Notes under the pieces: generated by a model | What the model was told of the DNA's origin: nothing | Database searches by the model: none | The model's input: the letters and a program-made list of their open reading frames with translations, nothing else | Shown here: one piece after another, positions 18,658-32,289 of the stretch | Layout of the letters: every line of letters begins with the position of its first letter | Position numbering within the stretch: position 1 is the first letter of the stretch | Position numbers and translations under genes: made by a program | From: a phage | Sequence record: NC_104726.1 | Reading direction: 5' to 3' (one strand) | Length of the DNA stretch: 64,000 bases

Positions 18658-19191
18658 ATGACTTGTGCTAGAAAACCTGATGAACAACGTAACGCCTACG
18701 ATGAGTATGTGACACCGGAGTGGTGTGCAGAAGGGCTGTATGACCTTATTCCGTTCCCAGAAGACTGGACCTACTTAGAGCCTTGCAGGAATAGTGCCTC
18801 AGGTGTGTTCTACTCCCGTATGCCGTTAGGATCTGCATGGGGAGAAATACAAGAAGGTGTTGACTATCTGAATACAGAATACAACCATGTTGACTGTATT
18901 ATCACCAACCCACCATACAGCCTGGCTCGTGAGTTTGTAGACAAGGCGTTGAAAGATGCTGACGTAGTTATTATGCTTTTGCGTCTTAATTTTCTGGAAA
19001 GCAAAGCCAGATTTGAATGGTGGCTTGATAATGCACCTACTACTGTGATCACAATATCTAAGCGTCCATCATTTCAATCAAACGGCAGAACTGACGGGCA
19101 AGCATATGCATATTTTGTGTGGGATAAGAAAAACCGTTTAGACTTGCCGCCGTTTATGTGGTTGGCACCCCCAGAGGTAGACCTGAAATGA
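18658..19191 (+). CDS. small phage Dam-type DNA N6-adenine methyltransferase
   Basis: YVTPEW and DCIITNPPYS motifs; 177 aa, typical of small phage Dam-type MTases. Confidence 0.6.
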   Translation: MTCARKPDEQRNAYDEYVTPEWCAEGLYDLIPFPEDWTYLEPCRNSASGVFYSRMPLGSAWGEIQEGVDYLNTEYNHVDCIITNPPYSLAREFVDKALKDADVVIMLLRLNFLESKARFEWWLDNAPTTVITISKRPSFQSNGRTDGQAYAYFVWDKKNRLDLPPFMWLAPPEVDLK

Positions 19192-19508: not shown

Positions 19509-19748
19509 ATGTACAAGTCATTTTCAATCTACTCAAGACAGGCGAAACACTACACAGAGATCCTGATCACTCAGAAAAAATCTGTGGAAGGTGAGTGGGA
19601 ATATCACCATAAAATGTTGCGTCCAGACTGGGTTTTTGATAGACTTATTGCTATGATCCCTCTCGGAGAAGTATACCCTCTGACAGCCCATCGCGATGCT
19701 TGGGATTTAATTGATTACATAGATTCATTTAAGGAGCCTAGATTATGA
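19509..19748 (+). CDS. hypothetical protein
   Basis: ATG after AGAGGGGG; in frame with track ORF 19473..19748. Confidence 0.35.
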   Translation: MYKSFSIYSRQAKHYTEILITQKKSVEGEWEYHHKMLRPDWVFDRLIAMIPLGEVYPLTAHRDAWDLIDYIDSFKEPRL

Positions 19749-20143
19749 AGATTGAGATTACTAAAGAAGGTAAGAAAGTGTCCGGCAACTATGCAACAGT
19801 AATTCGGGATTTAATGTTTGAAGCCACCAAGATCGGTACATCTAAAGTTGGTCAAACTGTTAGTGTGAAAAGTAATATCTCCACAGGAGAGAAGGTATTC
19901 ATTGTGGTCAAAGGGCAGGATCCCGTGGAAGGAACAGTGGGCCGAGGTGGCTACCTGTGCATTTCTGAAGAGCCGCGTATGTTAGTGGCTGACGCTACTA
20001 TGGGTGGGAAACGTGTGTGCGAGGCGGATGAGGTAATGATTATCCAACCTGTTGATCCAGATGACCCAGCAACTTGGGTGGTAGGAAATGAAATCTTCTC
20101 TTTAGAAGAGTTATCCTTCCCAGCACCGCGCTCTGTTCAGTAA
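19745..20143 (+). CDS. hypothetical protein
   Basis: Track ORF; GGAG RBS. Confidence 0.45.
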   Translation: MKIEITKEGKKVSGNYATVIRDLMFEATKIGTSKVGQTVSVKSNISTGEKVFIVVKGQDPVEGTVGRGGYLCISEEPRMLVADATMGGKRVCEADEVMIIQPVDPDDPATWVVGNEIFSLEELSFPAPRSVQ

Positions 20144-20180
20144 TAATTTATCTTACCAGGGACGGTAGGTAGGAGGTAGC

Positions 20181-20414
20181 ATGAAAGTTAAATTTCTTAC
20201 AGATTTAGGGTACCCTTCCTTGGTTGACTGTGTCGGTAAAATTGTGGAAGCAAAACGGCTATCTGCAAACGAGAATGTTGTCCTGGTTAAAGGGAAGGAT
20301 TTACTAGCTGCAGGTGCAGAGTCTGGCAGGATCTCTCCTGATTATATGTATTACCTATCTTTAAGTAATCTGCCAGAGCGAGGCGGTAAAGGCCTTGAAG
20401 TTGTGGAGGAGTGA
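20181..20414 (+). CDS. small acidic protein, MKVK...VVEE family
   Basis: MKVKFL start, KGKDLLAAGA core, C-terminal LEVVEE; GGAGG RBS. Confidence 0.5.
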   Translation: MKVKFLTDLGYPSLVDCVGKIVEAKRLSANENVVLVKGKDLLAAGAESGRISPDYMYYLSLSNLPERGGKGLEVVEE

Positions 20415-20419
20415 CAGGT

Positions 20420-20944
20420 ATGCTTCTGATTAACTGGGAAGACCTCTATGGGGACAAAGACCCTGTTGCGTTTGTTGATCGTAGGTGGAGATACACTGAA
20501 GAACAACTGGCGGCAAAAAATTTAACTGCAAAACGCAGAAAGATCATCCAGTGCAAGTACAAATACGCACAGTTTGCTGCAAAAGTGTCTCCACAAATCG
20601 AGAGCTTTGTGCTTAAATTGTATGACGAGTACCTCAAATTCAAATTGGATTTTGTGCAGGTGTACCGTGCACAGGTACGACCAGATACCAACATATGTAG
20701 ATGGAAGGTTGTTTGTGAAGGTAAAGATTTGCCGCTCAGCTTGACAATTGAGTGGCGTTATGGGTATCATGAGTGTGGTCTGTATGATATTTGGGATGTC
20801 ATTGTAGATCCTGCTAAGCATCTGAACACAGAGGAGCTGGAATATATCAATAAGGTTATTCTCGATATGTTTTTCAGCTACACACATGAAAACTCTGAGA
20901 AAGAACGGGATAATTTTCTTGACACCCTCAGCGACCATTTGTAG
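20420..20944 (+). CDS. hypothetical protein
   Basis: ATG 10 nt after GGAGG; in frame with track ORF 20411..20944. Confidence 0.45.
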   Translation: MLLINWEDLYGDKDPVAFVDRRWRYTEEQLAAKNLTAKRRKIIQCKYKYAQFAAKVSPQIESFVLKLYDEYLKFKLDFVQVYRAQVRPDTNICRWKVVCEGKDLPLSLTIEWRYGYHECGLYDIWDVIVDPAKHLNTEELEYINKVILDMFFSYTHENSEKERDNFLDTLSDHL

Positions 20945-20947
20945 TAT
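20919..20947 (+). promoter_or_regulatory. sigma70-like promoter (TTGACA-17-TAGTAT)
   Basis: -35 at 20919-20924, -10 at 20942-20947. Confidence 0.5.
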
Positions 20948-20974
20948 ACAATTTAACCTACAAAGGGAGGACCA

Positions 20975-21202
20975 ATGAGTATAAATGTTGTGCTAATAGG
21001 TTACCTGGTAATGTCCGTTATAACAGCGGTATTCTTGACAGGTGTATGCATCGTGTCCAGACGAAGGGTGAAGTTTGATGATTTTATCACCATCATCACT
21101 GCTGCACCTTTTTGGCCTGTTGTTATCTTCATCGTAATAATGTGCCTAGTTGATTACTACAAGAATATCAGGAAGGAGAGTAGGGATGGAGACCGCACCT
21201 AA
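20975..21202 (+). CDS. small membrane protein (two predicted TM segments)
   Basis: Hydrophobic stretches; AGGGAGG RBS. Confidence 0.45.
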   Translation: MSINVVLIGYLVMSVITAVFLTGVCIVSRRRVKFDDFITIITAAPFWPVVIFIVIMCLVDYYKNIRKESRDGDRT

Positions 21203-21338
21203 AACTATCTATACTGTTCTTAAAGAGATTGCGTTCTACGCAGATCTTAGCCAGGCACCTTTATGGGAAAAGAGCATGTATTTAAAATGGTGCGTTAATT
21301 TAGGGAGACCTTCCAGTGTTTCAAGCCATGTTTATTGA
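21186..21338 (+). CDS. hypothetical small protein
   Basis: ATG after AGGAAGGAGAG; in frame with track ORF 21150..21338. Confidence 0.3.
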   Translation: METAPKTIYTVLKEIAFYADLSQAPLWEKSMYLKWCVNLGRPSSVSSHVY

Positions 21339-21421
21339 GATGCTATCTGGGATATTGTTACTAGTAGCCATCTTAGGTGGTGCAGTTCTGATGTATAACT
21401 ATCTTGAAAAAGGAGACAGCA

Positions 21422-21607
21422 ATGGTAAAAAATAAATCTTTAGAGCAGGCTGAAAACCTTCTCCACGAGCTGGTAAAGGAGTGGAAAGTTGAATACTCAG
21501 ATTTTAATGCACGAGAGGGTGAAGATTATTGGCCTACGGAGCGCTCAGAGGGCGAATGGTATCAAGATTTTATAGAGTGGTTATATCAGACGTGCGATGA
21601 GGGGTGA
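21422..21607 (+). CDS. hypothetical small acidic protein
   Basis: ATG after AAAGGAGA; in frame with track ORF 21404..21607. Confidence 0.4.
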   Translation: MVKNKSLEQAENLLHELVKEWKVEYSDFNAREGEDYWPTERSEGEWYQDFIEWLYQTCDEG

Positions 21608-21609
21608 CG

Positions 21610-22074
21610 ATGTTTGTTAAATATGTAAAAACGTGCCTCAACAGTCTTGGCAGAGAGCATTGGTACACCTTGCTTGAAAAAGGGGAAATTTTAACAAAAT
21701 CTGGAAAGATAACTTTGATACCTCTTGATAGTAAAGGTAAAGACCCGTCACGACTTGTTATAGATGATTACGTTACAGGTGTGACGTTCGAGGTCTCTGT
21801 GGAGAGGTTAATACGCAGAGCTGGCGGCCCTTATGACCGAAGAGAGTATGTTTTCGATTCCGTTACAGAGATGGGGGAGCATCCGTCTTTAATGTTCAGG
21901 ATGGTAATCAGAGATATGAGGTCATCTATAGATAGGATCGTAAAGGACATTAAGGAACCTTTTAGAGTAAAAGTTAAGAAGTTTTTCGATTCTAAGATTA
22001 ACATACTCGCCGTTGCACTAGGTGTAGTTCAACTTCTGTTAATTTTGCACTATTTTGAACTACTATTTAAGTAG
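21610..22074 (+). CDS. hypothetical protein with C-terminal hydrophobic anchor
   Basis: ATG after GAGGGG; C-terminal INILAVALGVVQLLLIL. Confidence 0.45.
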   Translation: MFVKYVKTCLNSLGREHWYTLLEKGEILTKSGKITLIPLDSKGKDPSRLVIDDYVTGVTFEVSVERLIRRAGGPYDRREYVFDSVTEMGEHPSLMFRMVIRDMRSSIDRIVKDIKEPFRVKVKKFFDSKINILAVALGVVQLLLILHYFELLFK

Positions 22075-22136
22075 TAGTTGAGATATGGCACAAAGGATGT
22101 GCCATAGTGAAATAAACTAAGAAAGAGGTAGAGAGA

Positions 22137-22484
22137 ATGCCAAAGATTAAAACGTTATTACTGTGGGTAGCTGTTTTAGCTTTTATAGGGTACTGGACTT
22201 GGGAAACTGAATTAAAAGATATCGGATATACCAGTCTTGAGAGCAAGGCGTGCATTGGCATAACCGATGCGTTCAGGCAAAATGCTATGGATCACGAATG
22301 TGTTGATGCAGATATAGATGAGAAACTGTCTAAGGACAAAGATTTTTACCATGGGCATGCTTTACTTGATAGTGGTGACACTGTAGAGTTCTGGTCGTGG
22401 TTTCGTGAAGATGGAACAATAAAAACAGCAGTAAAGATCTCTAACAAAGAGTTAATGCTGTTGCAGCAAAAGGAGGCTCAATGA
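22137..22484 (+). CDS. hypothetical protein with N-terminal signal/anchor
   Basis: N-terminal LLLWVAVLAFIGYW; RBS AGAGGTAGAGAG. Confidence 0.45.
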   Translation: MPKIKTLLLWVAVLAFIGYWTWETELKDIGYTSLESKACIGITDAFRQNAMDHECVDADIDEKLSKDKDFYHGHALLDSGDTVEFWSWFREDGTIKTAVKISNKELMLLQQKEAQ

Positions 22485-22768
22485 TCTGGATATCCTATGC
22501 TGATGGCACCATGCTGTATACTGCAGGTACTAGGTATGAAGTTCAGGAGGACGATAAAAAATTTATCGTAAAAACATTTGACAAGGACGACAACCTTTTG
22601 TTAGAATTGACTTACAAGGTTGGGGAGGTATCTAGCATCCAGTTGGATTGTGGTCATAAAGATAATCCACTCAAAAAACCTGGAGTAGGTAAGGCTTCAG
22701 AAGAACGTCTGTCTCGTATTGCAGAAAGCGTTTCTCCCCAAAAATCTAAGAAGAGGACTAGAAAATGA
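22481..22768 (+). CDS. hypothetical protein
   Basis: Track ORF, overlapping start-stop with neighbours. Confidence 0.4.
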   Translation: MIWISYADGTMLYTAGTRYEVQEDDKKFIVKTFDKDDNLLLELTYKVGEVSSIQLDCGHKDNPLKKPGVGKASEERLSRIAESVSPQKSKKRTRK

Positions 22769-22959
22769 AAAACTTACGTTTTAACACTTATTACTACAAC
22801 ACATTGAATGATTTGTATTATATTGTTCGAAGTAAAAGTCCTGAAACAGTCCTATTCTGCCGCGAACCTTTCAAAGGGGAGGAAGTAGAGTCTGAGATGA
22901 ATGTTAGCCAGATCACCTCTTTGTTGCTCTCAGGCGCAATGGAAGAAGCAATATTCTAA
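22765..22959 (+). CDS. hypothetical small protein
   Basis: Track ORF, ATGA overlap with upstream gene. Confidence 0.35.
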   Translation: MKNLRFNTYYYNTLNDLYYIVRSKSPETVLFCREPFKGEEVESEMNVSQITSLLLSGAMEEAIF

Positions 22960-22977
22960 ACCAGGCAGGAGGGTTTT

Positions 22978-23166
22978 ATGAAGCACTATTGCCTGTCTGG
23001 TAGAATGGGTGCAGATTGTGATTGGGTTTTCTTAAAACTTGTCAGCATTCGAGAGTTCATCCCAGAGGAAGAGCAAGAAAGCGAGCTGATGTCATGGATC
23101 AACCATTACGGTAACACTTTTCGGCATGTTAAGGTAGAAGAGTTGCCAAGCGAGGCTGAATTATGA
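22978..23166 (+). CDS. hypothetical small protein
   Basis: Track ORF; AGGAGGG RBS. Confidence 0.35.
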   Translation: MKHYCLSGRMGADCDWVFLKLVSIREFIPEEEQESELMSWINHYGNTFRHVKVEELPSEAEL

Positions 23167-23459
23167 AACTTTTTGAGTGGTTTAAAAAGTTTAAATATAA
23201 AGCTGTAGCCATCGTGCCGTGGTCCATTCAGTGGGTTGATGAAGGTGGTCTACCGATACCTGGTGACAAAGATACTGGGTACTGGATTATGATGGAGAAC
23301 GGGTTTGGAAAGCGAAAGTATACGTGCACAAACTCTACTCGATCTGCACTTAATAGAGTGCCCGGTTACAAACTTATGGTTGTGTGGAAAATGTCAGGCG
23401 TGCCTCCAGCCAATGCTCAATTTCTTACTGACAATCCGACCACGGTAGAGGGAGATTGA
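23163..23459 (+). CDS. hypothetical protein
   Basis: Track ORF, coupled to neighbours. Confidence 0.4.
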   Translation: MKLFEWFKKFKYKAVAIVPWSIQWVDEGGLPIPGDKDTGYWIMMENGFGKRKYTCTNSTRSALNRVPGYKLMVVWKMSGVPPANAQFLTDNPTTVEGD

Positions 23460-23461
23460 TA

Positions 23462-23743
23462 ATGAAAAAGATTAACAGTAGTGAAGTAGAGTTTAAACTT
23501 GTCGGAAAAGGCACTTACTGGGAAGTTCGTCAAAAGGTATATTTGTTCGGTCTTATTCCCTACTGGTCTAAATTCTACTGGGGAGCTAACGAGTTGGGAA
23601 GATATGCCACCAAATCAATGGCACTTATTGGTATAGCAGAGTACATTGCAGCCCGAGACAGGGTTGGAACCACTTATTACTACACTGCTGACGATATTCG
23701 TAACAGTGTTTACGTCCCACAACCACCTGATGGAGACCGTTGA
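23462..23743 (+). CDS. hypothetical protein
   Basis: ATG after GGAGGGAG; in frame with track ORF 23456..23743. Confidence 0.4.
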   Translation: MKKINSSEVEFKLVGKGTYWEVRQKVYLFGLIPYWSKFYWGANELGRYATKSMALIGIAEYIAARDRVGTTYYYTADDIRNSVYVPQPPDGDR

Positions 23744-23967
23744 TGAAAGTTAAAGTTTTAGATTCAAGCTTCTATATTGGTCAGGAGCCTTTAGTAGGAA
23801 AAGTGTTTACTGCTGTCCCTAACGAAGATTACCCTGACCTTTTAAAAATAAAAGGAGCAGATCTTATTGCCGCTGGTGCATCTCAGGAATGCTTTGACAG
23901 TCAGTGGACCTATAACTTTGCCCTAGGTGAGGATGTAGAGGTAGTGGAGGACGATCATGAAGGTTAA
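23743..23967 (+). CDS. small acidic protein, MKVK...VVEE family
   Basis: MKVKVL start, KGADLIAAGA core, C-terminal VEVVED. Confidence 0.5.
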   Translation: MKVKVLDSSFYIGQEPLVGKVFTAVPNEDYPDLLKIKGADLIAAGASQECFDSQWTYNFALGEDVEVVEDDHEG

Positions 23968-24211
23968 AATTCTTGATTCTAACGTCTACTTGGGACAATC
24001 CTTCCTGAATGGAAAGGTCGTTCCTGCGGTATACTTTGAAGGGTTGCCGTGGGATGATCCTGTGCGGCAACATCACAGTTATGTAGGCCACAACGTGGTG
24101 TTTATCTTGGGATCAGACCTGATCACCGCTGGTGCACCTGAATATTATTTCGGGGAAGAGTCCTACTATGCCTTTGGGGTAGGGTCAGATGCAGATATTG
24201 TAGAGCTGTGA
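23957..24211 (+). CDS. small acidic protein, MKVK...VVEE family
   Basis: MKVKIL start, GSDLITAGA core, C-terminal DIVEL. Confidence 0.5.
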   Translation: MKVKILDSNVYLGQSFLNGKVVPAVYFEGLPWDDPVRQHHSYVGHNVVFILGSDLITAGAPEYYFGEESYYAFGVGSDADIVEL

Positions 24212-24223
24212 TGGGTAACCGTT

Positions 24224-24622
24224 GTGAAAAATAAACTGTTTAAAGTTACAATGAAAATTCGCGGGGCTTGGAGCGTAAAGCAAGGGCGTATTCCAGAATT
24301 TGAGAAAGACTTCTACGTAGTCTCCACCTCGGAGGAGGCTGCATGCTGGCAGGCTGGCTATGCCTATGCAAGAACCTGGTACGAAGGATACCAGACTGGG
24401 GGCTATGACGGAGAAATTATCAGCAAGGGTGTAGAAGAAATTAATGTGTTGACAAGTGAAAAAGTTTTTGTTATAGTGCATCCAGATTCCAGAGTGAAGC
24501 ATTACTGGAATGCCAGAACAAAAACTTGGACACCGTTTGCAGATTCTGCTACGCCACTTTTAAACCAGAAAGCTCTTGACTCTGCCCCAAGTTATGGGGT
24601 TGTTGAAGAAAAGCTAAACTGA
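24224..24622 (+). CDS. hypothetical protein (paralog of 26434..26829)
   Basis: Shares VIVHPDSRVKHYWNARTKTWTPF-like block with 26434..26829; GTG start. Confidence 0.45.
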   Translation: MKNKLFKVTMKIRGAWSVKQGRIPEFEKDFYVVSTSEEAACWQAGYAYARTWYEGYQTGGYDGEIISKGVEEINVLTSEKVFVIVHPDSRVKHYWNARTKTWTPFADSATPLLNQKALDSAPSYGVVEEKLN

Positions 24623-24639
24623 AACAGTGAGGTGTCACC

Positions 24640-24930
24640 ATGATGGATTTAATTCTAAATATTGATAACGCAGGAGAGTTTAAAGACGATGGTGTAACAA
24701 GCATGGACAAACCCTGCTCTGCTAAGGTTGACTCAAAATGGACCTACAAGTTTGACGGAGAGACCTTCGCAAATGATGAGAAGGTTGTAGATGCTGCAGC
24801 CATTTTAAACGCTCTAGGGTACGACCCTGTGAATTCTTTGATCAAGGATCCTGTTGAGTTTGCAGAGTATGTTCGAAAAATGGCAGATCTTGCTGTGGAT
24901 ATTTTAAAAACTATCGACAACAAGCTGTAA
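24640..24930 (+). CDS. hypothetical acidic protein
   Basis: Track ORF; GAGGTG RBS. Confidence 0.4.
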   Translation: MMDLILNIDNAGEFKDDGVTSMDKPCSAKVDSKWTYKFDGETFANDEKVVDAAAILNALGYDPVNSLIKDPVEFAEYVRKMADLAVDILKTIDNKL

Positions 24931-24936
24931 AAACTG

Positions 24937-24965
24937 TTGACACAACGCTTCAGATTTAGTATCAT
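24937..24965 (+). promoter_or_regulatory. sigma70-like promoter (TTGACA-17-TATCAT)
   Basis: -35 at 24937-24942, -10 at 24960-24965, about 50 nt upstream of the HPF gene. Confidence 0.55.
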
Positions 24966-25014
24966 TGTTTTCAAAGAGAGATAGTTATTCCCTCTTCCTT
25001 AAAAGGAACACGTT

Positions 25015-25335
25015 ATGCAAATTGAAATCACTGGCAACAATGTAGAAATCACAGAAGGTATGGTATCTTTTATTTCCCGCAAAATGTCCAAGCTGGAGCG
25101 TTTACATCCCTCTGTTAACTATGCACGTGTGAGTGTAAAAGTTGAAAATGATCACCAGGAAGTTATGGCGTTCATTTTTGACAATTCTGGAAAAGAAGTT
25201 ATTGCCAAGGCTAAAGGCAGTGATGCTTACGAGGCAACTGACCGTATGGTAGATGTTGCAGCACGTCAGCTGGCTAAATGCGGTGGAAAGAAAGGTAAGG
25301 GGAAAGGCAAAGTAAAGATTGACTTTGGAGAATGA
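25015..25335 (+). CDS. hpf: ribosome hibernation promoting factor / RaiA-family protein
   Basis: MQIEITGNNVEITEGM...VKVEN...AKAKGSDAYEATDRMVDVAARQLAK closely matches bacterial HPF/YfiA (MQLNITGNNVEITEAL...AEGQDMYAAIDGLIDKLARQL); AAAGGA RBS. Confidence 0.85.
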   Translation: MQIEITGNNVEITEGMVSFISRKMSKLERLHPSVNYARVSVKVENDHQEVMAFIFDNSGKEVIAKAKGSDAYEATDRMVDVAARQLAKCGGKKGKGKGKVKIDFGE

Positions 25336-25344
25336 GGTGCTACA

Positions 25345-25446
25345 ATGGGTGTGATTAAGAAATTAGTCCCAAATGTAGAGATTGCATGCTTTGAAATTAT
25401 GTTTGCAATCGCAGTTGTAGTTAATGTGTTAGGTTACGGCTATTAA
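25345..25446 (+). CDS. small hydrophobic peptide (33 aa)
   Basis: ATG after GAGGTG; single predicted TM helix; below the track length cutoff. Confidence 0.3.
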   Translation: MGVIKKLVPNVEIACFEIMFAIAVVVNVLGYGY

Positions 25447-25472
25447 TATCAAATAATTGAGGAGACCTCTAA

Positions 25473-25742
25473 ATGAAAATTAAATTATTCCAAACTGAGC
25501 TGGCAGACAAAAATTGTGGACTGGTTGAAGGCATGATTGTTGAAGCACAACCAGTGGACTATATGAAGGTGGTTCGTGATGCCCTAGGTGAAGGTTTTGA
25601 TCTGATGGAGCCAGCTCTGCGAGAAGATGTTATCGAGATGGCTAAAAAGCACACACCTGAAGGTTTGGTGGTGTTTGTTGCACCGGGTAACGGAGAAGAG
25701 TTGATTGTAACTCCTGATGTGTATGAGATTGTAGAGGAATAA
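25473..25742 (+). CDS. small acidic protein, MKIK...IVEE family
   Basis: MKIKLF start, C-terminal YEIVEE; GAGGAG RBS. Confidence 0.45.
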   Translation: MKIKLFQTELADKNCGLVEGMIVEAQPVDYMKVVRDALGEGFDLMEPALREDVIEMAKKHTPEGLVVFVAPGNGEELIVTPDVYEIVEE

Positions 25743-25761
25743 TCCTGCTTGGATTAGCATA

Positions 25762-25795
25762 CTTCCTCGCTAAGGAAGATTTGTAATTATTTGTG
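25762..25795 (+). terminator. terminator-like hairpin
   Basis: CTTCC-TCGCTAA-GGAAG followed by a T-rich tract. Confidence 0.4.
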
Positions 25796-25833
25796 GGAAA
25801 GGAGTCCCAATCTCTTACCAGAGGTGATACTAT

Positions 25834-26097
25834 ATGATTGTTTATTTTAAAACTTCAGGTGGATACCCTGATTCTCAAAGCTTGATCGGAAAAACGTGCA
25901 CAGCATACTCACCTCTTGATGAGGAGGTAAGCGATATTTTACGAAATATGTATCGGATTGACCCCCAAGAAGCCTTTGATCAAAACCTTGTATTTGTCAA
26001 GGGCTCAGATATGAAGTCTTTGGGAGCATTCCCTGAAGCAGATGATGATGCCGTTTATTCGTTCATGACTCCTTTTGAAGCTATGGTTGTTGGGTGA
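25834..26097 (+). CDS. small acidic protein, related to the MKVK family
   Basis: LVFVKGSDMKSLGA core aligns with the family motif. Confidence 0.45.
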   Translation: MIVYFKTSGGYPDSQSLIGKTCTAYSPLDEEVSDILRNMYRIDPQEAFDQNLVFVKGSDMKSLGAFPEADDDAVYSFMTPFEAMVVG

Positions 26098-26101
26098 TAA
26101 T

Positions 26102-26434
26102 ATGAAAGTACGCTTTATTGGTGAAACAATTCCTGTGCATCTCCGGTCGCCTGAGGATTCTGCAGATCTTGCATCTCAAAAGGCGAGAGGTTATGATAAG
26201 AAAGTAACCTCAACCGATGTAGTGCTTGAGGCTACTAGTCTACCTGACCCTGCTGCATTCTTTAATCATTATGGGTACTATTTCAGCAATCTGATGAATA
26301 TCGGTGAGCTTGTGTTTATTAGTGGTGGAGAAATTGTTAGCAAGCTTGGCGGCGATCCGGATATCTTTCATGAAACCTGTCCTTTTGCATTTGTGGTAGG
26401 TTCAGATGTGGAAGTTATTGAGGAGGTGCGGTAA
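26102..26434 (+). CDS. small acidic protein, MKVR...VIEE family
   Basis: MKVRFI start, C-terminal GSDVEVIEE; in frame with track ORF 26075..26434. Confidence 0.45.
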   Translation: MKVRFIGETIPVHLRSPEDSADLASQKARGYDKKVTSTDVVLEATSLPDPAAFFNHYGYYFSNLMNIGELVFISGGEIVSKLGGDPDIFHETCPFAFVVGSDVEVIEEVR

Positions 26435-26829
26435 TGGTAAGCCTATACCGTGTTGAGTATAGCTCAGATACTGTATACAACGTAAGAAGCAAAGATCGCA
26501 GCGACAGAGTGCAAGAAATGTATGTTCTTGCCGACAGTCCGTTATCTGCAGCGTTCAAGGCAGGGGCTCTTGCATCTCGTTGGAAATTTGAAGGTGGATC
26601 TTTCTATGAAGAAACCCTTGAAGATTCTGTTGTTATTTCTTCTGTAGAGGTTTCAGATGACTACGAAGGGAAAAAGTTCGTAATGCGGCACCCACACAGC
26701 AACATTGCGTACTACTGGGATGTTCTGAACAACGAGTGGACCCCAGATCTTCAGAAGGCTACTGTGCTAACACCGTTTTTGGCAGATAAGTTCCCACCAG
26801 AAGGTAATTTATCCGCACTGTTTCAGTAA
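26434..26829 (+). CDS. hypothetical protein (paralog of 24224..24622)
   Basis: Shares FVMRHPHSNIAYYWDVLNNEWTPD block. Confidence 0.45.
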   Translation: MVSLYRVEYSSDTVYNVRSKDRSDRVQEMYVLADSPLSAAFKAGALASRWKFEGGSFYEETLEDSVVISSVEVSDDYEGKKFVMRHPHSNIAYYWDVLNNEWTPDLQKATVLTPFLADKFPPEGNLSALFQ

Positions 26830-26847
26830 TTTTCTTGCACACAGGTG

Positions 26848-26876
26848 TTGACAACGCCAACCCTGTGTGAAATAAT
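26848..26876 (+). promoter_or_regulatory. sigma70-like promoter (TTGACA-17-AATAAT) flanked by an 8 bp inverted repeat
   Basis: -35 at 26848-26853; CACACAGG (26838-26845) and CCTGTGTG (26862-26869) flank the -35 and spacer. Confidence 0.5.
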
Positions 26877-26908
26877 ACCTTCATCTTAACAAGACAGGGG
26901 ACCGATTG

Positions 26909-27166
26909 ATGAAGATTAAATTGAAAAACCTTGAAACGGCAGAGATTCAGGACGGTGTTGATTTCCGTTCTAAAGATGGTGACATCTTAGAGGTAAATAT
27001 TCCAACCTACGAGCTGATTAAAGGTTTTGGCAACGTTCCGGAAGAGGATATTACAGAAATTCTTATGATGTTGATTCTTGACGGAACTGTGTTTGTAGGT
27101 GAAGGTGAGAACGCTATTGCAATCCCAGGCCATTTTTATGAAGTAGTTGACGAAGAGGTGCTGTAA
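26909..27166 (+). CDS. small acidic protein, MKIK...VVDEE family
   Basis: MKIKLK start, C-terminal YEVVDEE. Confidence 0.45.
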   Translation: MKIKLKNLETAEIQDGVDFRSKDGDILEVNIPTYELIKGFGNVPEEDITEILMMLILDGTVFVGEGENAIAIPGHFYEVVDEEVL

Positions 27167-27517
27167 ATGAAAGTAGAAATTACCGGTTTTGATGTGAATG
27201 TGGTTCCGGAAGATATTTTAGCTAAACTTCCAGAAGGTTTTGGTAACGGCGTTGTGGTGGATGCTGTTCCTCCTACCAAAGACATTCTGCTGCAGTATGG
27301 TGTAGCAGAGGAAGATGTCGATAAAGTTCTTACAATGATGGCAATCGATCGTGTTGTCGTTGTTAAAGGTCTCGATAATTTTGAGAGTGATCCCCTGATT
27401 ATTCGTGGAGATGACTACAAAATCATCGATAATGAAGGCCAAGAGTTCTATGAACCTTGTGCAGAAGATATTCTTAACTTATTACTGGAAGCAGGTACCG
27501 AAGAGGAGGACGAATAA
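27167..27517 (+). CDS. hypothetical acidic protein
   Basis: Track ORF, ATGA overlaps. Confidence 0.45.
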   Translation: MKVEITGFDVNVVPEDILAKLPEGFGNGVVVDAVPPTKDILLQYGVAEEDVDKVLTMMAIDRVVVVKGLDNFESDPLIIRGDDYKIIDNEGQEFYEPCAEDILNLLLEAGTEEEDE

Positions 27518-27846
27518 TGAAGATTGACCCGTTACTGAAGGCTCGTGCAGAAAAAGCGTACACCATTAAGCTGACCAACCTGGTTCCTACTTGTCATCCA
27601 GATGTAGGTTGGCCTGAAGGTCTGGTAGAGGGGACTGTAACAGCTGCATACCTCCCTAACATCAAATACCTTATGGAAATCTTGGAGCTGGATGAGGAAA
27701 CGGCAGAAGAGTTACAGTTGGACATGAAACAAAGTGGGACTCTGGTTATTCACGGGTGGTATAATACTAAAGACGCAGAAGACCCTCTTGTAACTTCTAA
27801 TCTGGCATATGAAATCTTAGGACCTTTGAACCTGGGGGAAGACTAA
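27517..27846 (+). CDS. hypothetical acidic protein
   Basis: Track ORF, coupled. Confidence 0.45.
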   Translation: MKIDPLLKARAEKAYTIKLTNLVPTCHPDVGWPEGLVEGTVTAAYLPNIKYLMEILELDEETAEELQLDMKQSGTLVIHGWYNTKDAEDPLVTSNLAYEILGPLNLGED

Positions 27847-28133
27847 TGAAAGATCTGGTTAAGATTAAGATTAAAGATACCAACGGCGAACTCAGCCATT
27901 TTGGAATTAATGATGGTGACGAGCTGATCGCACACCTGCCTACCAAGGAAGTTGTAAGCAAAGCAGTTGCCGGAGAAGAAGATGCAATGCAGGCTGCAGG
28001 TGTGGATGAAAACTATGTAGCCATGTGCATGTGCCGAGACCAGGTTGTTCTGTATAAAGCGTATCGACCAAACGGAGCCACGGAGTGGCTTGTATTCCGA
28101 CCCGAAGGATATGAAATCTTAGAGGCACTATGA
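27846..28133 (+). CDS. hypothetical acidic protein
   Basis: Track ORF, coupled; C-terminal YEILEAL. Confidence 0.45.
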   Translation: MKDLVKIKIKDTNGELSHFGINDGDELIAHLPTKEVVSKAVAGEEDAMQAAGVDENYVAMCMCRDQVVLYKAYRPNGATEWLVFRPEGYEILEAL

Positions 28134-28222
28134 TAAATCTTGCCAAGGTTGCAACGGCACTGTTAATTATTTGCTGGTCAGTAACCTTAACACTGTGTCT
28201 TGTATTTCGGTAAGGTGCTTAT

Positions 28223-28486
28223 ATGAACATCCTGATGTGGGTTGTAGCAGTGGCGTTTGTTGCATGTTTTTGCTGCTGGGTTGCGGTGAGGATTTCTGTA
28301 GCTACCCTTCGGAAGTTGGGGTTCTCAGAGTGGGATATTAATATCCTTTCTTTTCGCAATGAAACAATCTCAGCCGCCCTGCTCTGTAAGAAATTCAAGT
28401 GGGAACCTTGCGAGGTCATGAACTATCTAAGAACGGGAGATATCCCTGAAAGATTTAAAAAAGTTCTTGACGACAAGGATAAATGA
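28223..28486 (+). CDS. small membrane protein
   Basis: N-terminal WVVAVAFVACFCCWVAV. Confidence 0.4.
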   Translation: MNILMWVVAVAFVACFCCWVAVRISVATLRKLGFSEWDINILSFRNETISAALLCKKFKWEPCEVMNYLRTGDIPERFKKVLDDKDK

Positions 28487-28514
28487 TAGTATAGTGACTA
28501 ACAAGAGGTGAGGA

Positions 28515-28655
28515 ATGACTGATTTTACTGAAGCTTTAATGATGGCCTTGTCTGTTTTAGCGCTATCGGTGTGTTTTGGGGCGTTATTCACATCTCTGGT
28601 TAAAGTTTTACATACAGTATTATTACCCAAGGAGCGCAGTAATGACGAAGATTGA
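28515..28655 (+). CDS. small membrane peptide (46 aa)
   Basis: ATG after AGGTGAGG; hydrophobic core; overlaps start of next gene. Confidence 0.3.
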   Translation: MTDFTEALMMALSVLALSVCFGALFTSLVKVLHTVLLPKERSNDED

Positions 28656-28893
28656 CTTAAATGCTGGAGACCATGTTGTTGTCAAATGCATCGGAGATTA
28701 TCTTGGATTCACAATCGGCAATACTTACGAGGCGGTAGTGGCGAAGGTTTACCATGATAAAGTCCTCAGTCTTGTATTTGACTGCGATGATGATGGGGAT
28801 GACCGATACGTCTGTGAGGTGCTGGCACGAGACGATAGTGAAGACCAGAAATTCCTGGTTATTGAACTGAACGGTATTTTTGTAGAACGTTAA
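28642..28893 (+). CDS. hypothetical protein
   Basis: ATG after AAGGAG; in frame with track ORF 28576..28893. Confidence 0.45.
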   Translation: MTKIDLNAGDHVVVKCIGDYLGFTIGNTYEAVVAKVYHDKVLSLVFDCDDDGDDRYVCEVLARDDSEDQKFLVIELNGIFVER

Positions 28894-28921
28894 TTTAAAA
28901 CAACATAAGGAGACTCTCACT

Positions 28922-29227
28922 ATGGCTAAATCTAAAGTTGAACTGTTCACCTCTCTTCCTTCTGACACTGCAGAGCGTGATCGCCTTCGCAAAACAATCG
29001 AAGAACTGGTAGAACTCCAACTTCAGATTAAAGATCTGAAAGATGCCATTAAGGATATCATTCTCGTTGAGAAGCAGGATCACCTGTATTCTCCTAAATT
29101 CATCAAATCTCTGGTGGCTACCGAGTTCGATATTCGCTATGAGGCTGAAAAACGTCGCGCTAAAATCGAAGAAGAGGTTGAGCACATGTCTGAGGCAGAC
29201 ATTCTGTTCAAACGCTCTGTAGAATAA
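28922..29227 (+). CDS. hypothetical coiled-coil protein
   Basis: AAGGAGA RBS; charged helical sequence. Confidence 0.45.
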   Translation: MAKSKVELFTSLPSDTAERDRLRKTIEELVELQLQIKDLKDAIKDIILVEKQDHLYSPKFIKSLVATEFDIRYEAEKRRAKIEEEVEHMSEADILFKRSVE

Positions 29228-29233
29228 TGACAA

Positions 29234-29259
29234 AGAGGGGGGCTTGGGCCCCTCTTTTT
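29234..29259 (+). terminator. rho-independent terminator
   Basis: AGAGGGG...CCCCTCT stem followed by TTTTACT. Confidence 0.5.
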
Positions 29260-29282
29260 ACTATCTATGAAGGAGATTTGAG

Positions 29283-29609
29283 ATGGGTATACCGATTACT
29301 GTAAAAGAGCTAAATGAACGTGATGCAGGTGGTCTATGGCCTGCACGAAAAATCCGCTGCGTCTATATGAAAGAGAATCTTGAACATCTTGATCAACAGA
29401 TAAAGGTCGGCGATATTTTCGAGGTCTTCTATTCCAATCGGCGCAACTGGGAAACCATTCAGCCTTCTGGTTTTGTTCTTGCCAAACTTGACACTGGAGA
29501 AGTGATTATCCCTGGGTTGGATATTGTCTTCGAAATTATCCAAGAGTGGGATCCGGATAAGATTAGATACGAAGAATTATTCGGTAAAGGTATTATCAAA
29601 CCTGTGTGA
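29283..29609 (+). CDS. hypothetical protein
   Basis: GAAGGAGA RBS. Confidence 0.45.
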   Translation: MGIPITVKELNERDAGGLWPARKIRCVYMKENLEHLDQQIKVGDIFEVFYSNRRNWETIQPSGFVLAKLDTGEVIIPGLDIVFEIIQEWDPDKIRYEELFGKGIIKPV

Positions 29610-29617
29610 GGTGGATT

Positions 29618-29920
29618 ATGTCTACAAAGGCGGCTAAATACTCCTATATGCCATCAACCTCTGCAGAGGTAGACTTTAGTTTCGATGTGTTTCCACTGTT
29701 TGAGGTGATTCTGGCATACCCAACAATACTATCTACTCCTGAATCACTTGTACCTGTTAAGTTGCAGAACGCTATGCATTCTATGCACTACAACAATAAT
29801 AAATGTAGGCACAGATGGTGTCAGGACGAGGAAAAAGATTTGGATAGTTTGAGGGATTTTGACAGTCACCTTTTGACACCTTTCAGCTACTCCAACCTTG
29901 ATAAGCCCTCATGGGTATAG
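29618..29920 (+). CDS. hypothetical protein
   Basis: ATG after GTGAGGTGG; in frame with track ORF 29606..29920. Confidence 0.4.
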   Translation: MSTKAAKYSYMPSTSAEVDFSFDVFPLFEVILAYPTILSTPESLVPVKLQNAMHSMHYNNNKCRHRWCQDEEKDLDSLRDFDSHLLTPFSYSNLDKPSWV

Positions 29921-29945
29921 CAAAATATCAAATTTAAGACACCTA

Positions 29946-29971
29946 GGACGCTCTGTGGCGTCCTTTTCTTT
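29946..29971 (+). terminator. rho-independent terminator
   Basis: GGACGC-TCTGTG-GCGTCC followed by TTTTCTTT. Confidence 0.55.
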
Positions 29972-30133
29972 ATCTGGTGCACGATTGCATACCTTGGACA
30001 GATAATCTCGTTACAGAGCGTTTAAGAGCTTTCTACAAACAAGTCTCTCTTTCGAGCGTAGCGAGAACGCACGTCCGTTTTGACCAAAATCACCATACGC
30101 TCGGATTTTAACCAAACCCTCGCGGCGTTTCTG

Positions 30134-30162
30134 TTGACACATTGCCGCTCCAGTGATAGTAT
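30134..30162 (+). promoter_or_regulatory. sigma70-like promoter (TTGACA-17-TAGTAT) overlapping a DnaA-box-like GTATCCACA
   Basis: -35 at 30134-30139, -10 at 30157-30162; TATCCACA at 30160-30167. Confidence 0.55.
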
Positions 30163-30182
30163 CCACACATCGTTTGGAGAAT

Positions 30183-30284
30183 ATGGGATACACAATGAAA
30201 ACATTGTCAGAGGTTTTGGTGGTGATCCTGATGATCATTACGTCCATAGTGGCTGTTGCCGGAATACTCACGGGTGGAACATGA
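30183..30284 (+). CDS. small membrane peptide (33 aa)
   Basis: Hydrophobic VLVVILMIITSIVAVAGIL; stop overlaps the next ATG (ATGA); below the track length cutoff. Confidence 0.3.
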   Translation: MGYTMKTLSEVLVVILMIITSIVAVAGILTGGT

Positions 30285-30493
30285 TCAACACACATGCATC
30301 TGAAGAGACATCCGAAGGAGTGACCATATGTCCCTTGGATGAGCCAGTTAAAGAGGAAAACTTAGATTCTGAGGACTATTCATCTTCGTCCCAGACAGAT
30401 CCTGAGGCTGATGACCTAACGTGGGAAGACATCGTAGACATCTGGTTCTCCATTATGCCTGAGCACGAAGAGTTCAGAGGTGGTAGACTATGA
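30281..30493 (+). CDS. small acidic protein
   Basis: ATG at 30281 in frame with track ORF 30080..30493, whose upstream part overlaps the promoter. Confidence 0.4.
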   Translation: MINTHASEETSEGVTICPLDEPVKEENLDSEDYSSSSQTDPEADDLTWEDIVDIWFSIMPEHEEFRGGRL

Positions 30494-30613
30494 AGCACCG
30501 AGCCCACACAGGTTCCTCATGCTAAAGCATGGCCTGAAGAGGCAAACGTGCATAATTCCTGTGCATTGTGACGTATAAAACCCGTTCACACTCTCATTTC
30601 CAGAGGAGATTTC

Positions 30614-30829
30614 ATGAAGATAGAAATATTTGGTGGAGCTGACAACACTCGTGGCCTGATTTACCTTGAATTCGATGAATCATACCTGCCAGAGGTGTTA
30701 AATATAGGCTCTGTTGCTGAGGCTTTGGGAGTAAACCCTAAAGAACTCCACTCTTGTGCTGAGATCGATGGTTGGGAAGAGACCATGAACATTGATTTCA
30801 GTGAAGTAGAGGATGAACCGCTTGACTGA
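30614..30829 (+). CDS. small acidic protein
   Basis: GAGGAG RBS; last + strand gene before the non-coding region. Confidence 0.4.
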   Translation: MKIEIFGGADNTRGLIYLEFDESYLPEVLNIGSVAEALGVNPKELHSCAEIDGWEETMNIDFSEVEDEPLD

Positions 30830-31670
30830 CACACAATTAGCTGCCCGGCTAAAGTGCTGGAAGCACCTATAACACATCTTTCAACTAAATTTCCTACCAC
30901 CACAATCACTTACCTCCCACACATGACTGTTTGCTTGTTTAGTGAGCAGTCATGCCTTGACATTCTTGCCTATCCTGATAAAATTAAGTTCTTCTCTTTT
31001 CTTTTACCGAGTAATTCGGGTTTTCTGTTCTCTTCGGTTTGAAGGGGTATGGAGATACACCTGAGTGAACAGGGTGAACAACCGAACATTTGGCTATGGC
31101 ATTAGCATGGCGAAGCGGACGGGTGACGAAAGAGGGGCCGGAGGACACCAGTCACTGCCATATGATATATGGGTGATAACCTGAAGAGTCTGAATAAGTG
31201 TTTAAGTACCAGTCAGAGGAAAAGGTGAATGGTAGCCGAAGGGGGAGGGGGGTTTCTTGTATCTTTAATTTGTATATTATGTATACACTCGTAAACCAAT
31301 CTCATCTGAATCTGTTTACCACACAAAGTAGATAGGGACAAATATCACCTATTAAACTTGAATTATTTATAGAAAATACCACAACACCACTTAAGTCTTT
31401 GATTTTACACACAAATCCTACAGATATTCAACCTCTATATTTAACATATTCATAACATATTCCATACTCTACCTGTCTGATCAATTTACCCAACCACATC
31501 CTCCATATTTTCCCTGTCTGTACTACCCCTGCCCCGCCGGGAGTCCCGTCATATCTGGCTTTCCAGCAAATATCACACCCACAAATATCATTACCTGAAG
31601 AGGGTTTCATCCCATAATACCTGCCTTACCTGAAGAGCGCTTCATATACCCCGTAAATTTTTTAATTGAC

Positions 31671-31700
31671 CCCCTCCCCGCCGCCGGAGGGGTCGGCTTT
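31671..31700 (+). terminator. GC-rich hairpin, terminator-like
   Basis: CCCCTCC-CCGCCGCC-GGAGGGG followed by TCGGCTTTT. Confidence 0.3.
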
Positions 31701-32289
31701 TCCCACACAGGCCTGAAGAGTCAGCCAGAAATATCTGAACAGGTCCAGTTATACCACGATTTTGACCTGACCGACAGGAGTGCTGCCAGGCGGACGAAAT
31801 GGGAATCATTCTCATTCTTATAACAATTCTCAAATATCGAGGCAGTGAGGCAAATTAATAGGTGAGGCCGTTCACACAATGGCACAACATTTGCAACCTA
31901 TCTTGTGGGAGTGAATGAGAATACCTATCATTGTGAGAATAGTTATCATTACGGGCAATTTAACATAATACCCATTATGCGCACCACTGGCGATCCATAC
32001 AGGGATTGATAACATGAGTTACCGTTTACGCACATAACAATTATATTTCTTACTATTTGTGTGGGATATAGTTAGCAGCCAATAGATTAGATATTAACCT
32101 GCGGACTTCTGACCGTCCAGACGTCTAAACGCCCACACAACAAGGGTTATACATACACAACTGAATGTAAACAGGGCCGCAAAAATGCTACCATACCAGT
32201 TTGTAAATTTTCATGCAGCACTTGACAAAGAGGAGAAAAACTTGTCTGACACCTTATACACTTTCGACACAATAACGACTGTTATTATT

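Follow-up and report, generated by a model that had tools for sequence, protein, structure and literature searches.

Two families of small acidic proteins with predicted SH3-like folds in a small-gene block of an rV5-like Vequintavirus

The subject of this report is a block of small genes at positions 19745-30829 of a 64,000 nt stretch of phage DNA (sequence record NC_104726.1; the whole stretch is called the window below), which encodes two families of small, acidic proteins with five paralogues each, families A and B, and a further pair of related genes, family C. In a nucleotide search of phage records, this 11 kb region of the window was 99.4-99.5% identical to Escherichia phage Murica and matched 122 records, 115 of which span at least 80% of the region at 90% identity or more; because of the near-identity to Murica and the number of near-full-coverage records, the window is, by sequence, that of an rV5-like Vequintavirus. 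The counterpart of the block in Murica and rV5 comprises about 36 small genes, all on the plus strand and nearly all labelled 'hypothetical', and it sits downstream of PhoH-like, ClpP-like and DNA methyltransferase genes. All-against-all comparison (phmmer and BLASTP) of 31 annotated-type open reading frames (ORFs) of the block yielded three similarity groups, A, B and C, the members of which are given here in genome order; genes are named by their first coordinate, lengths are in amino acids (aa), and pI is the isoelectric point.

20181-20414, plus strand: family A, 77 aa, rV5 gp122/ORF127, pI 5.4, net charge -1
23743-23967, plus strand: family A, 74 aa, rV5 gp135/ORF140, pI 4.1, used for the family A model; the stop of the gene upstream overlaps its start
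23957-24211, plus strand: family A, 84 aa, rV5 gp136/ORF141, with an insertion between predicted strands 2 and 3; 11-nt overlap with 23743
24224-24622, plus strand: family C, 132 aa, rV5 gp137, directly downstream of the A gene 23957
25473-25742, plus strand: family B, 89 aa, rV5 gp141/ORF146, pI 4.3
25834-26097, plus strand: family A, 87 aa, rV5 gp142/ORF147, divergent
26102-26434, plus strand: family A, 110 aa, rV5 gp143/ORF148, carrying the largest insertion and ending in an overlap with the start of 26434
26434-26829, plus strand: family C, 131 aa, rV5 gp144, directly downstream of the A gene 26102
26909-27166, plus strand: family B, 85 aa, rV5 gp145/ORF150, pI 4.1, used for the family B model; it opens a run of four B genes
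27167-27517, plus strand: family B, 116 aa, rV5 gp146/ORF151, net charge -21, with an acidic C-terminal tail
27517-27846, plus strand: family B, 109 aa, rV5 gp147/ORF152, with an N-terminal extension
27846-28133, plus strand: family B, 95 aa

Pairwise phmmer E-values within family A, against the 31 sequences, ran from 1e-12 to 5e-3. The overlapping genes 23743 and 23957 matched at 1e-12 (hhalign probability 99.6%), 26102 was linked to the groups of both at 85-92%, mostly through its C-terminal half, and 25834 was linked to the 20181 group at 84%. In family B, 27167 matched 26909 at 1e-5 and 27517 matched 27167 at 4e-3, and hhalign alignments between the B sub-families spanned 59-84 columns at a probability of only 13-30%. 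Hidden Markov models (HMMs) built from either family and searched against the 448 six-frame ORFs of the window found their own five members only, with the best outsider at an E-value of at least 0.47. Leave-one-out HMMs, to which orthologues from a large protein database had been added and from which one paralogue had been omitted, were scored against the same 448 ORFs. For family A, the omitted member was the top non-training match at E 1e-5 to 1e-20 (20181, 1.9e-7; 26102, 1.3e-6; 25834, 1.9e-5), the next unrelated ORF being at 0.03 or above, and for family B it was again the top non-training match, at E 7e-9 to 2e-3 (27167, 7e-9; 27846, 6.8e-6; 25473, 8.4e-4; 27517, 2.3e-3), the next ORF being at 0.65 or above. 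Over the two families, unrelated ORFs began at E 0.03-2.8. Since every omitted paralogue came first in this way, both A and B are, on these comparisons, real families; the genes 19745, 30614 and 28642 had no significant match to either HMM. The PHROGs database already unites 20181, 23743 and 23957 (PHROG 5009, which 20181 matches at 8e-36 and 25834 weakly at 1.2e-4) and both C genes (PHROG 7379), and splits the remaining A members (PHROGs 13920 and 13661) and the B members (five separate PHROGs) into single-gene families, all of 'unknown function' and with no fold or link assigned.

The preliminary description of this DNA had put eight of these ORFs into a single family of at least seven paralogues. 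All eight are present at the starts it gave, on the plus strand, and correspond to annotated genes of Murica and rV5, and the observation is partly confirmed in that the similarity is real but lumps separate families. The five A members do belong together: all of them (20181, 23743, 23957, 25834 and 26102) fit the A profile and carry the motifs MKVKxL, GKVVxA, VxIxGxDLxxxGA, YxF and E(V/I)(V/I)E, which 25473, 26909 and 27846 fail to do. The latter three fall in family B, which has its own collinear, full-length signature (an MK-I-K strand, a GxxxxA strand, an acidic helix with EED, a VV strand and a YEI(V/L) end), as do 27167 and 27517, which had been overlooked and are B members by leave-one-out HMM. 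What emerges is thus a pair of five-member families with nothing in common but a generic, predicted SH3-like barrel fold. The proposed core VFVKGxDLxAAGA is a genuine motif, but confined to A, and the two C-terminal motifs exist, yet GxDVEVVE is the signature of A and YEIVEE that of B, not variants of one ending. An MK(V/I) start is enriched in the block (10 of 31 block genes, vs 16 of the 448 window ORFs) but is not family-specific, and the acidity of the proteins was correctly described (pI 4.05-5.4, net charge -1 to -21 over the members). The profile-profile check that had been proposed gave strong within-family links for A and none between A and B.

It could be argued that the similarity is compositional or due to chance, or that some of the ORFs are not real genes, as the sequences are short, acidic and of low information, and some pairwise E-values are only 1e-2 to 1e-3. 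This reading is already refuted by the leave-one-out HMMs, which rank the omitted member first among 448 ORFs and so reveal similarity beyond composition, as the preliminary description had supposed, and also by the conservation of orthologues in more than 115 genomes with ratios of nonsynonymous to synonymous substitution (dN/dS) well below 1, by confident AlphaFold2 models, and by the 44 family A clusters found in a library of 1.8 billion proteins.

Between A and B there is no detectable link at the level of sequence, because profile-profile alignment, sub-family comparison, exhaustive search and Foldseek reveal nothing in common apart from the generic fold. hhalign aligned no more than the first 27 columns at the N-terminus, which comprise the MK(V/I)K and GxVxA strands, with a probability of 7% for genus-level alignments and 9% for a much deeper A alignment, and no pair of A and B sub-families exceeded 5%. 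When 1.84 billion representative proteins were searched exhaustively (HMMER) with the A profile, 44 clusters came up at E<=1e-3 and no B member among them, and the top 50 Foldseek matches of the B model to predicted viral structures included no Vequintavirus protein of A-type length. Compared separately with known structures, the AlphaFold2 models of A and B both match the same SH3 entries. A common origin, making A and B one diverged superfamily of at least ten paralogues, would still account for several features: the order of elements is collinear (MK(V/I)K strand, GxVxA strand, insertion site, VVFV strand and E(V/I)VEE final strand), the insertion in long A members lies at the site of the B helices, the A leave-one-out HMMs repeatedly give the B member 27167 as their next match (E 0.035-2.3), and the hhalign P for the 27 columns is about 0.004. 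Given the negative results above, the confinement of the alignment to the N-terminal hairpin, and how common an MKxK start and an acidic end are in this block, such an origin is doubtful though far from negligible, and the same may be said of the version in which B arose from an insertion-bearing A-type ancestor and lost the DLxxAGA helix-loop.

AlphaFold2 was run on the family alignments, with 23743 modelled for A and 26909 for B. The A model (predicted local distance difference test score, pLDDT, 91.1; predicted template modelling score, pTM, 0.78) has strands at residues 2-5, 21-23, 33-37, 56-61 and 65-69 and a short helix at 38-43, and the B model (pLDDT 89.6, pTM 0.77) has strands at 2-5, 26-28, 61-63, 70-72 and 77-79, its second and third strands being separated by two inserted helices, at 34-38 and 45-57. 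In both models five antiparallel strands form a partly open barrel that can be superposed on SH3, KOW and PsaE, and A and B are predicted to be SH3-like, five-stranded small beta-barrels, a statement made at the level of fold only. The predicted barrel shares a long loop after strand 1 with SH3, KOW, PsaE, the retroviral integrase C-terminal domain and Tudor-like domains (50-58 residues aligned at 2.5-3.1 A), and known members of the SH3-like fold are typically small protein- or ligand-binding modules. Conservation falls on hydrophobic strand positions and on Gly and Tyr, while length varies mostly between strands 2 and 3, where the insertion of 25834 is probably helical. With the B model, Foldseek found an 86-aa protein of Vibrio phage Vc1 (31% identity, template modelling (TM) score 0.74), a 95-aa Vequintavirus protein (TM 0.66) that appears, from its length alone, to be the orthologue of 27846 and hence a separately modelled B paralogue, and an 83-aa protein of Vequintavirus phage CM1 (TM about 0.5, E 0.02). 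The block itself encodes an 83-aa acidic protein at 28642-28893 (PHROG 12851) with no sequence similarity to A or B, and this may be another small barrel protein, possibly of the type of the CM1 match.

Searches at the sequence level agree with the preliminary description that no known domain is recognised. Pfam gave no match at E<=1 for eight of the ten A and B proteins, and 27517 and 27846 matched only unrelated families, with scores well short of the threshold; a set of 37 diverse members of family A had no Pfam match either, NCBIfam and PDB sequence-profile searches were likewise negative, and no canonical SH3 (Pfam SH3_1 and related) or KOW profile was matched above its gathering threshold. 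A Pfam scan also found no partner domain in the longer or multi-copy A proteins (P0096, P0099, P0110, P0112, P0113, P0119, P0124 and P0125). The C-terminal GxDVEVV of family A resembles the 'DGDEVEI' of ThiS/MoaD, a lead that was not borne out, as the combination of a beta-grasp fold and a C-terminal Gly-Gly was not found.

Neither among sequenced phages nor in the metagenome-scale protein set do families B and C occur outside Vequintavirus, apart from the structural relative of B in Vibrio phage Vc1. Family A reaches much further. The proteins of its 44 clusters are mostly 63-87 aa, with the consensus MKVKLLNDGGYxGM..VVGKVVxA...IxGxDLIxAGA...F...YxF..GxExE(I/V)VEE; P0096, P0099 and P0125 carry two to three tandem family A domains per protein, and some other clusters have unrelated C-terminal extensions. 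By tblastn, family A was found in Krischvirus RB49 and its relatives, in Iodobacter phage phiPLPE, in Salmonella and E. coli siphoviruses, and in Proteus, Klebsiella and Vibrio phages, always as 'hypothetical'. RB49 has an expansion of its own among the small ORFs that lie between gene 38 and dam. There, ORF073c, ORF074c and ORF080c are closer to one another than to any of the Vequintavirus copies, and ORF071c and ORF076c are weaker members; family A is, judging from these similarities, independently expanded in that phage. The closest relative of 20181 outside the genus is a 75-aa protein (P0031, phmmer 1e-17) encoded between the antiterminator Q and holin genes of lambdoid E. coli prophages; of 5,426 complete E. 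coli genomes, 13 carry it. Morganella and another bacterium harbour P22-like prophages with an A gene in the early-left operon, where it follows RecT/YqaJ or Erf/SSB and precedes NinX, an MT-A70 methylase and the integrase. In all these phages and prophages outside Vequintavirus, family A genes are within arrays of small accessory ORFs. The expansion described for this block is thus a genuine local one, but family A is not lineage-specific, and on present sequence evidence it is a recurrent, unnamed phage domain that is prone to multiply; this wider family (44 clusters, with the RB49 and prophage members) was not found as a described family in the literature and databases searched. In three unrelated contexts (the DNA methyltransferase gene of the window at 18658-19191, dam in RB49, and the prophage MT-A70 gene) the A genes lie 0.3-3 kb from a DNA methyltransferase gene, a proximity that may merely reflect shared placement in accessory regions.

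The arrangement of the paralogues gives some indication of how they arose. The two C genes match each other at phmmer 3e-11, and because each directly follows an A gene, their positions indicate that a two-gene A+C module was duplicated as a segment long ago, the copies now being represented by 23957-24224 and 26102-26434, and suggest that the tandem duplication giving 23743 and 23957 came after it. At 26909-28133, four B genes abut one another in a tandem array of their own. By this account the paralogues would derive from tandem duplication (23743/23957 and the 26909-28133 run) and from segmental duplication of A+C, and would then have been kept as separate genes. A 70-aa protein on contigs of about 133 kb (P0014) joins the N-terminal half of 23743 to the C-terminal half of 23957 and appears to be a chimera from unequal recombination between adjacent paralogues. 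The A+C pairing belongs to Vequintavirus, since the C HMM finds nothing beside the A genes of RB49, phiPLPE and the prophages, and tblastn finds family C in Vequintavirus records only.

Six diverged Vequintavirus genomes each carry the full set of ten A and B genes and two C genes. Nei-Gojobori dN/dS is mostly 0.0-0.3 for the A and B genes, much as for neighbouring genes. This combination of presence and low dN/dS indicates purifying selection on each paralogue and not ongoing diversification, and the term 'diversifying' in the preliminary description does not fit the pattern inside the genus. The BASEL phage EduardKellenberger/Bas59 (MZ501061.1), a viable phage isolated on E. coli K-12, carries a deletion with the following blastn breakpoints:

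20817-24536: deletion of 3.7 kb in Bas59, removing the A genes 23743 and 23957, most of the C gene 24224 and about 12 other small genes

Its junction lies at an imperfect microhomology of 11-15 bp, GCAGAT(C/T)CTGCTA, and creates an in-frame fusion of 20420 to the tail of 24224. Bas59 thus does without 23743, 23957 and 24224, and in the reading preferred below the family members are individually accessory and not essential. The fusion ORF is named 'putative glycosidase' in GenBank, a label that looks unfounded because neither parent gene has a Pfam match. Among the six compared genomes, mosaic allele replacement is seen in the otherwise 95-100% identical block 19745-30829: identity drops to 52% for 26909 in phiWec189 and to 79-80% for 23957 in A6-1 and SYGMH1, and among neighbours to 51-57% for 20420 and 20975 in JES2013 and SYGMH1 and to 68-71% for 22765 in rV5, JES2013 and PDX.

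Neighbouring genes overlap by 1 or 11 nt or abut directly at 23743, 23957, 26434, 27167, 27517 and 27846, so that the translational coupling proposed earlier for several of them is plausible from the coordinates. The sigma70 promoters proposed for the cluster were found directly upstream of the 26909-28133 run and of the unit comprising the HPF gene and 25473, and only there:

24937-24965, plus strand: sigma70-like promoter, 11/12 consensus, identical with rV5 P144, upstream of HPF and, further on, 25473
25015-25335: ribosome hibernation factor gene HPF, inside the block (PF02482, E 4e-15)
25319-25346: sigma70-like promoter assigned to the unit of HPF and 25473
26848-26876, plus strand: sigma70-like promoter (TTGACA, 17 nt spacer, TGnAATAAT; 11/12 consensus with extended -10), identical with rV5 P150, upstream of the B run 26909-28133

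In this region, sigma70-like promoters of this kind (perfect TTGACA, 11/12 consensus) occur on the plus strand only, and early expression is plausible on these signals; according to the rV5 paper, such promoters are spread across the entire genome. The 19 proteins of the rV5 virion proteome include no A, B or C product, and gp133 from the same block (21610-22074) was detected in the virion (PMC3606486). The literature search brought up neither a transcriptome for the genus nor any paper on families A, B or C or on their expression or phenotypes.

Blocks of small early takeover or accessory genes are well known from the hyperplastic regions of T4, the host-takeover module of SPO1 and the class I genes of T7. 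The present block would seem to resemble them in its dense, same-strand ORFs of 60-130 aa, overlapping stops and starts, host-type promoters, dispensability and many acidic products, and an RB49 homologue of family A sits in exactly such a block; it differs in that the members described here include no homologue of a characterised takeover protein. The reading we prefer is that A and B are stand-alone, acidic barrel proteins of about 75-115 residues which are absent from the virion and act as loop-diversified binders of host or phage proteins. Host-type sigma70 promoters would drive at least part of their expression. Each protein would offer the conserved barrel as a scaffold, and the variable parts (the long loop that follows strand 1, the site where insertions separate strands 2 and 3, and in family A the helix and loop after strand 3) would bind a different host, or phage, protein in each paralogue and so modulate host physiology or immunity during infection. 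A role as protein-binding modules is suggested because these are compact, acidic, non-virion proteins with conserved core and turn residues, variable loops and insertions, and relatives in accessory operons; the multi-copy domains within single proteins and the independent expansion in RB49 would also fit a modular binding unit. Several considerations weigh on the other side. Genes in a fast arms race would not be expected to show purifying selection and to be kept almost throughout the genus, a promoter is nearby for only some members, acidity is not peculiar to the two families (18 of 31 block genes have a pI below 5.5), and the alignment behind the B model mixes five sub-families and is not independent evidence for all five. 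For the statement as a whole we would put the probability at about 0.45, its structural and evolutionary part being much firmer than the functional one. A bolder form, in which A (and B, convergently or distantly) is a portable SH3-like binder scaffold of phages, copied into arrays and multi-domain proteins across unrelated lineages with a loop-encoded specificity for one host defence or housekeeping protein each, is improbable as it stands.

Host-takeover or anti-defence roles, which the preliminary description suggested, are a reasonable idea in spirit but conjectural, and the genomic settings of the genes in other phages would fit an accessory or early role. A narrower role would be that of specific anti-defence factors, each paralogue binding and inhibiting a different bacterial immune protein. 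The proteins are small, acidic and non-virion, their genes lie in accessory regions, multi-copy arrays recur in unrelated phages, and some members are dispensable on K-12, a host with few defences. The early-left operons in which the A gene of P22-like prophages lies are of a class that carries Ral, Gam and Abc-type counter-defence genes. On the other hand, no homologue has a known anti-defence activity, and the strong conservation, low dN/dS and lack of presence/absence flux are not what would be expected of such genes. The BASEL data describe Vequintavirinae as 'exceptionally susceptible' to restriction-modification (RM) systems (PMC8594841), which argues against a broad anti-restriction role, and specific anti-defence is rather unlikely. 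The same RM sensitivity (PMC8594841) speaks against the idea that these proteins are acidic DNA mimics of the Ocr, ArdA or Arn kind, blocking restriction enzymes or host DNA-binding proteins. Net charges of up to -21, the acidic tail of 27167 and the nearby methyltransferase genes in three contexts would suit mimicry, but the predicted barrel is unlike Ocr or ArdA, and 20181, with a net charge of -1, is barely acidic, leaving it very improbable. We give as little credence to KOW- or Tudor-like binders of nucleic acids, ribosomes or RNA polymerase that cooperate with the neighbouring HPF. This idea draws on the HPF gene within the cluster and on a 'sigma 54 modulation factor' label borne by 25473 in some GenBank records, and it is opposed by the pI of 4-5, which disfavours RNA or DNA binding, by the lack of any Pfam KOW or S30AE match, by the phmmer E of 0.24 between 25473 and HPF, and by the A homologues of other phages, which do not adjoin HPF.

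If the binder reading were true, the ten genes would be a ready panel for finding host targets or anti-defence activities, in a genus widely used in E. coli biocontrol and therapy, and family A, recurring in T4-like phages and prophages, would deserve a domain name. Small paralogous accessory genes are ordinary in large lytic phages and the find is a modest one. Its main value is corrective: two families in place of one, a predicted fold, two extra members, and doubtful GenBank labels on 25473 and the Bas59 fusion. It adds the division into A, B and C, the predicted fold, the recognition of family A as a recurrent phage domain, and Bas59 as a natural deletion mutant usable for phenotype work.

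Some annotations and records related to these genes also deserve comment. 25473 is 95-100% identical in 117 phage records, and the label 'sigma 54 modulation factor' is found on it in records such as MN850xxx and PQ510733. As a relative of HPF it was rejected, with no PF02482 match at E<=1, the true HPF being the gene at 25015-25335, and the label is probably annotation spill-over from that neighbouring HPF/RaiA gene. The orthologue of 27846 in the rV5 reference (NC_011041.1, 8326-8596) is represented by two overlapping ORFs, gp148 and gp149 (61% coverage), and is intact in five other genomes, so the split is either a frameshift or a sequencing error in that reference. A 98-aa protein on a contig of 657 bp (P0086) has 55 C-terminal residues of the 27517 type and an unrelated N-terminus matching PF24132; it is either a recombinant or an assembly chimera. 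Eighteen unannotated GenBank records titled 'Campylobacter phage' (MG0656xx) are 97-99.5% identical to E. coli rV5-like phages and are probably mislabelled or derived from contaminating coliphages.

Two other genes of the region were noted:

18658-19191: DNA methyltransferase gene, near family A genes
28922-29227: 101-aa protein, PHROG 639 'transcriptional regulator' (E 1e-21), with a weak GapR-like DNA-binding match (E 0.04)

The latter protein is 100% conserved across the six compared genomes and a strong, bidirectional terminator-like hairpin lies behind its gene, at 29232-29257. Beyond it, the GC skew flips from positive to negative at about 30000-32000, where the genes turn from the plus to the minus strand, in agreement with the switch of skew and transcription reported at about 104.4-105.5 kb for rV5.

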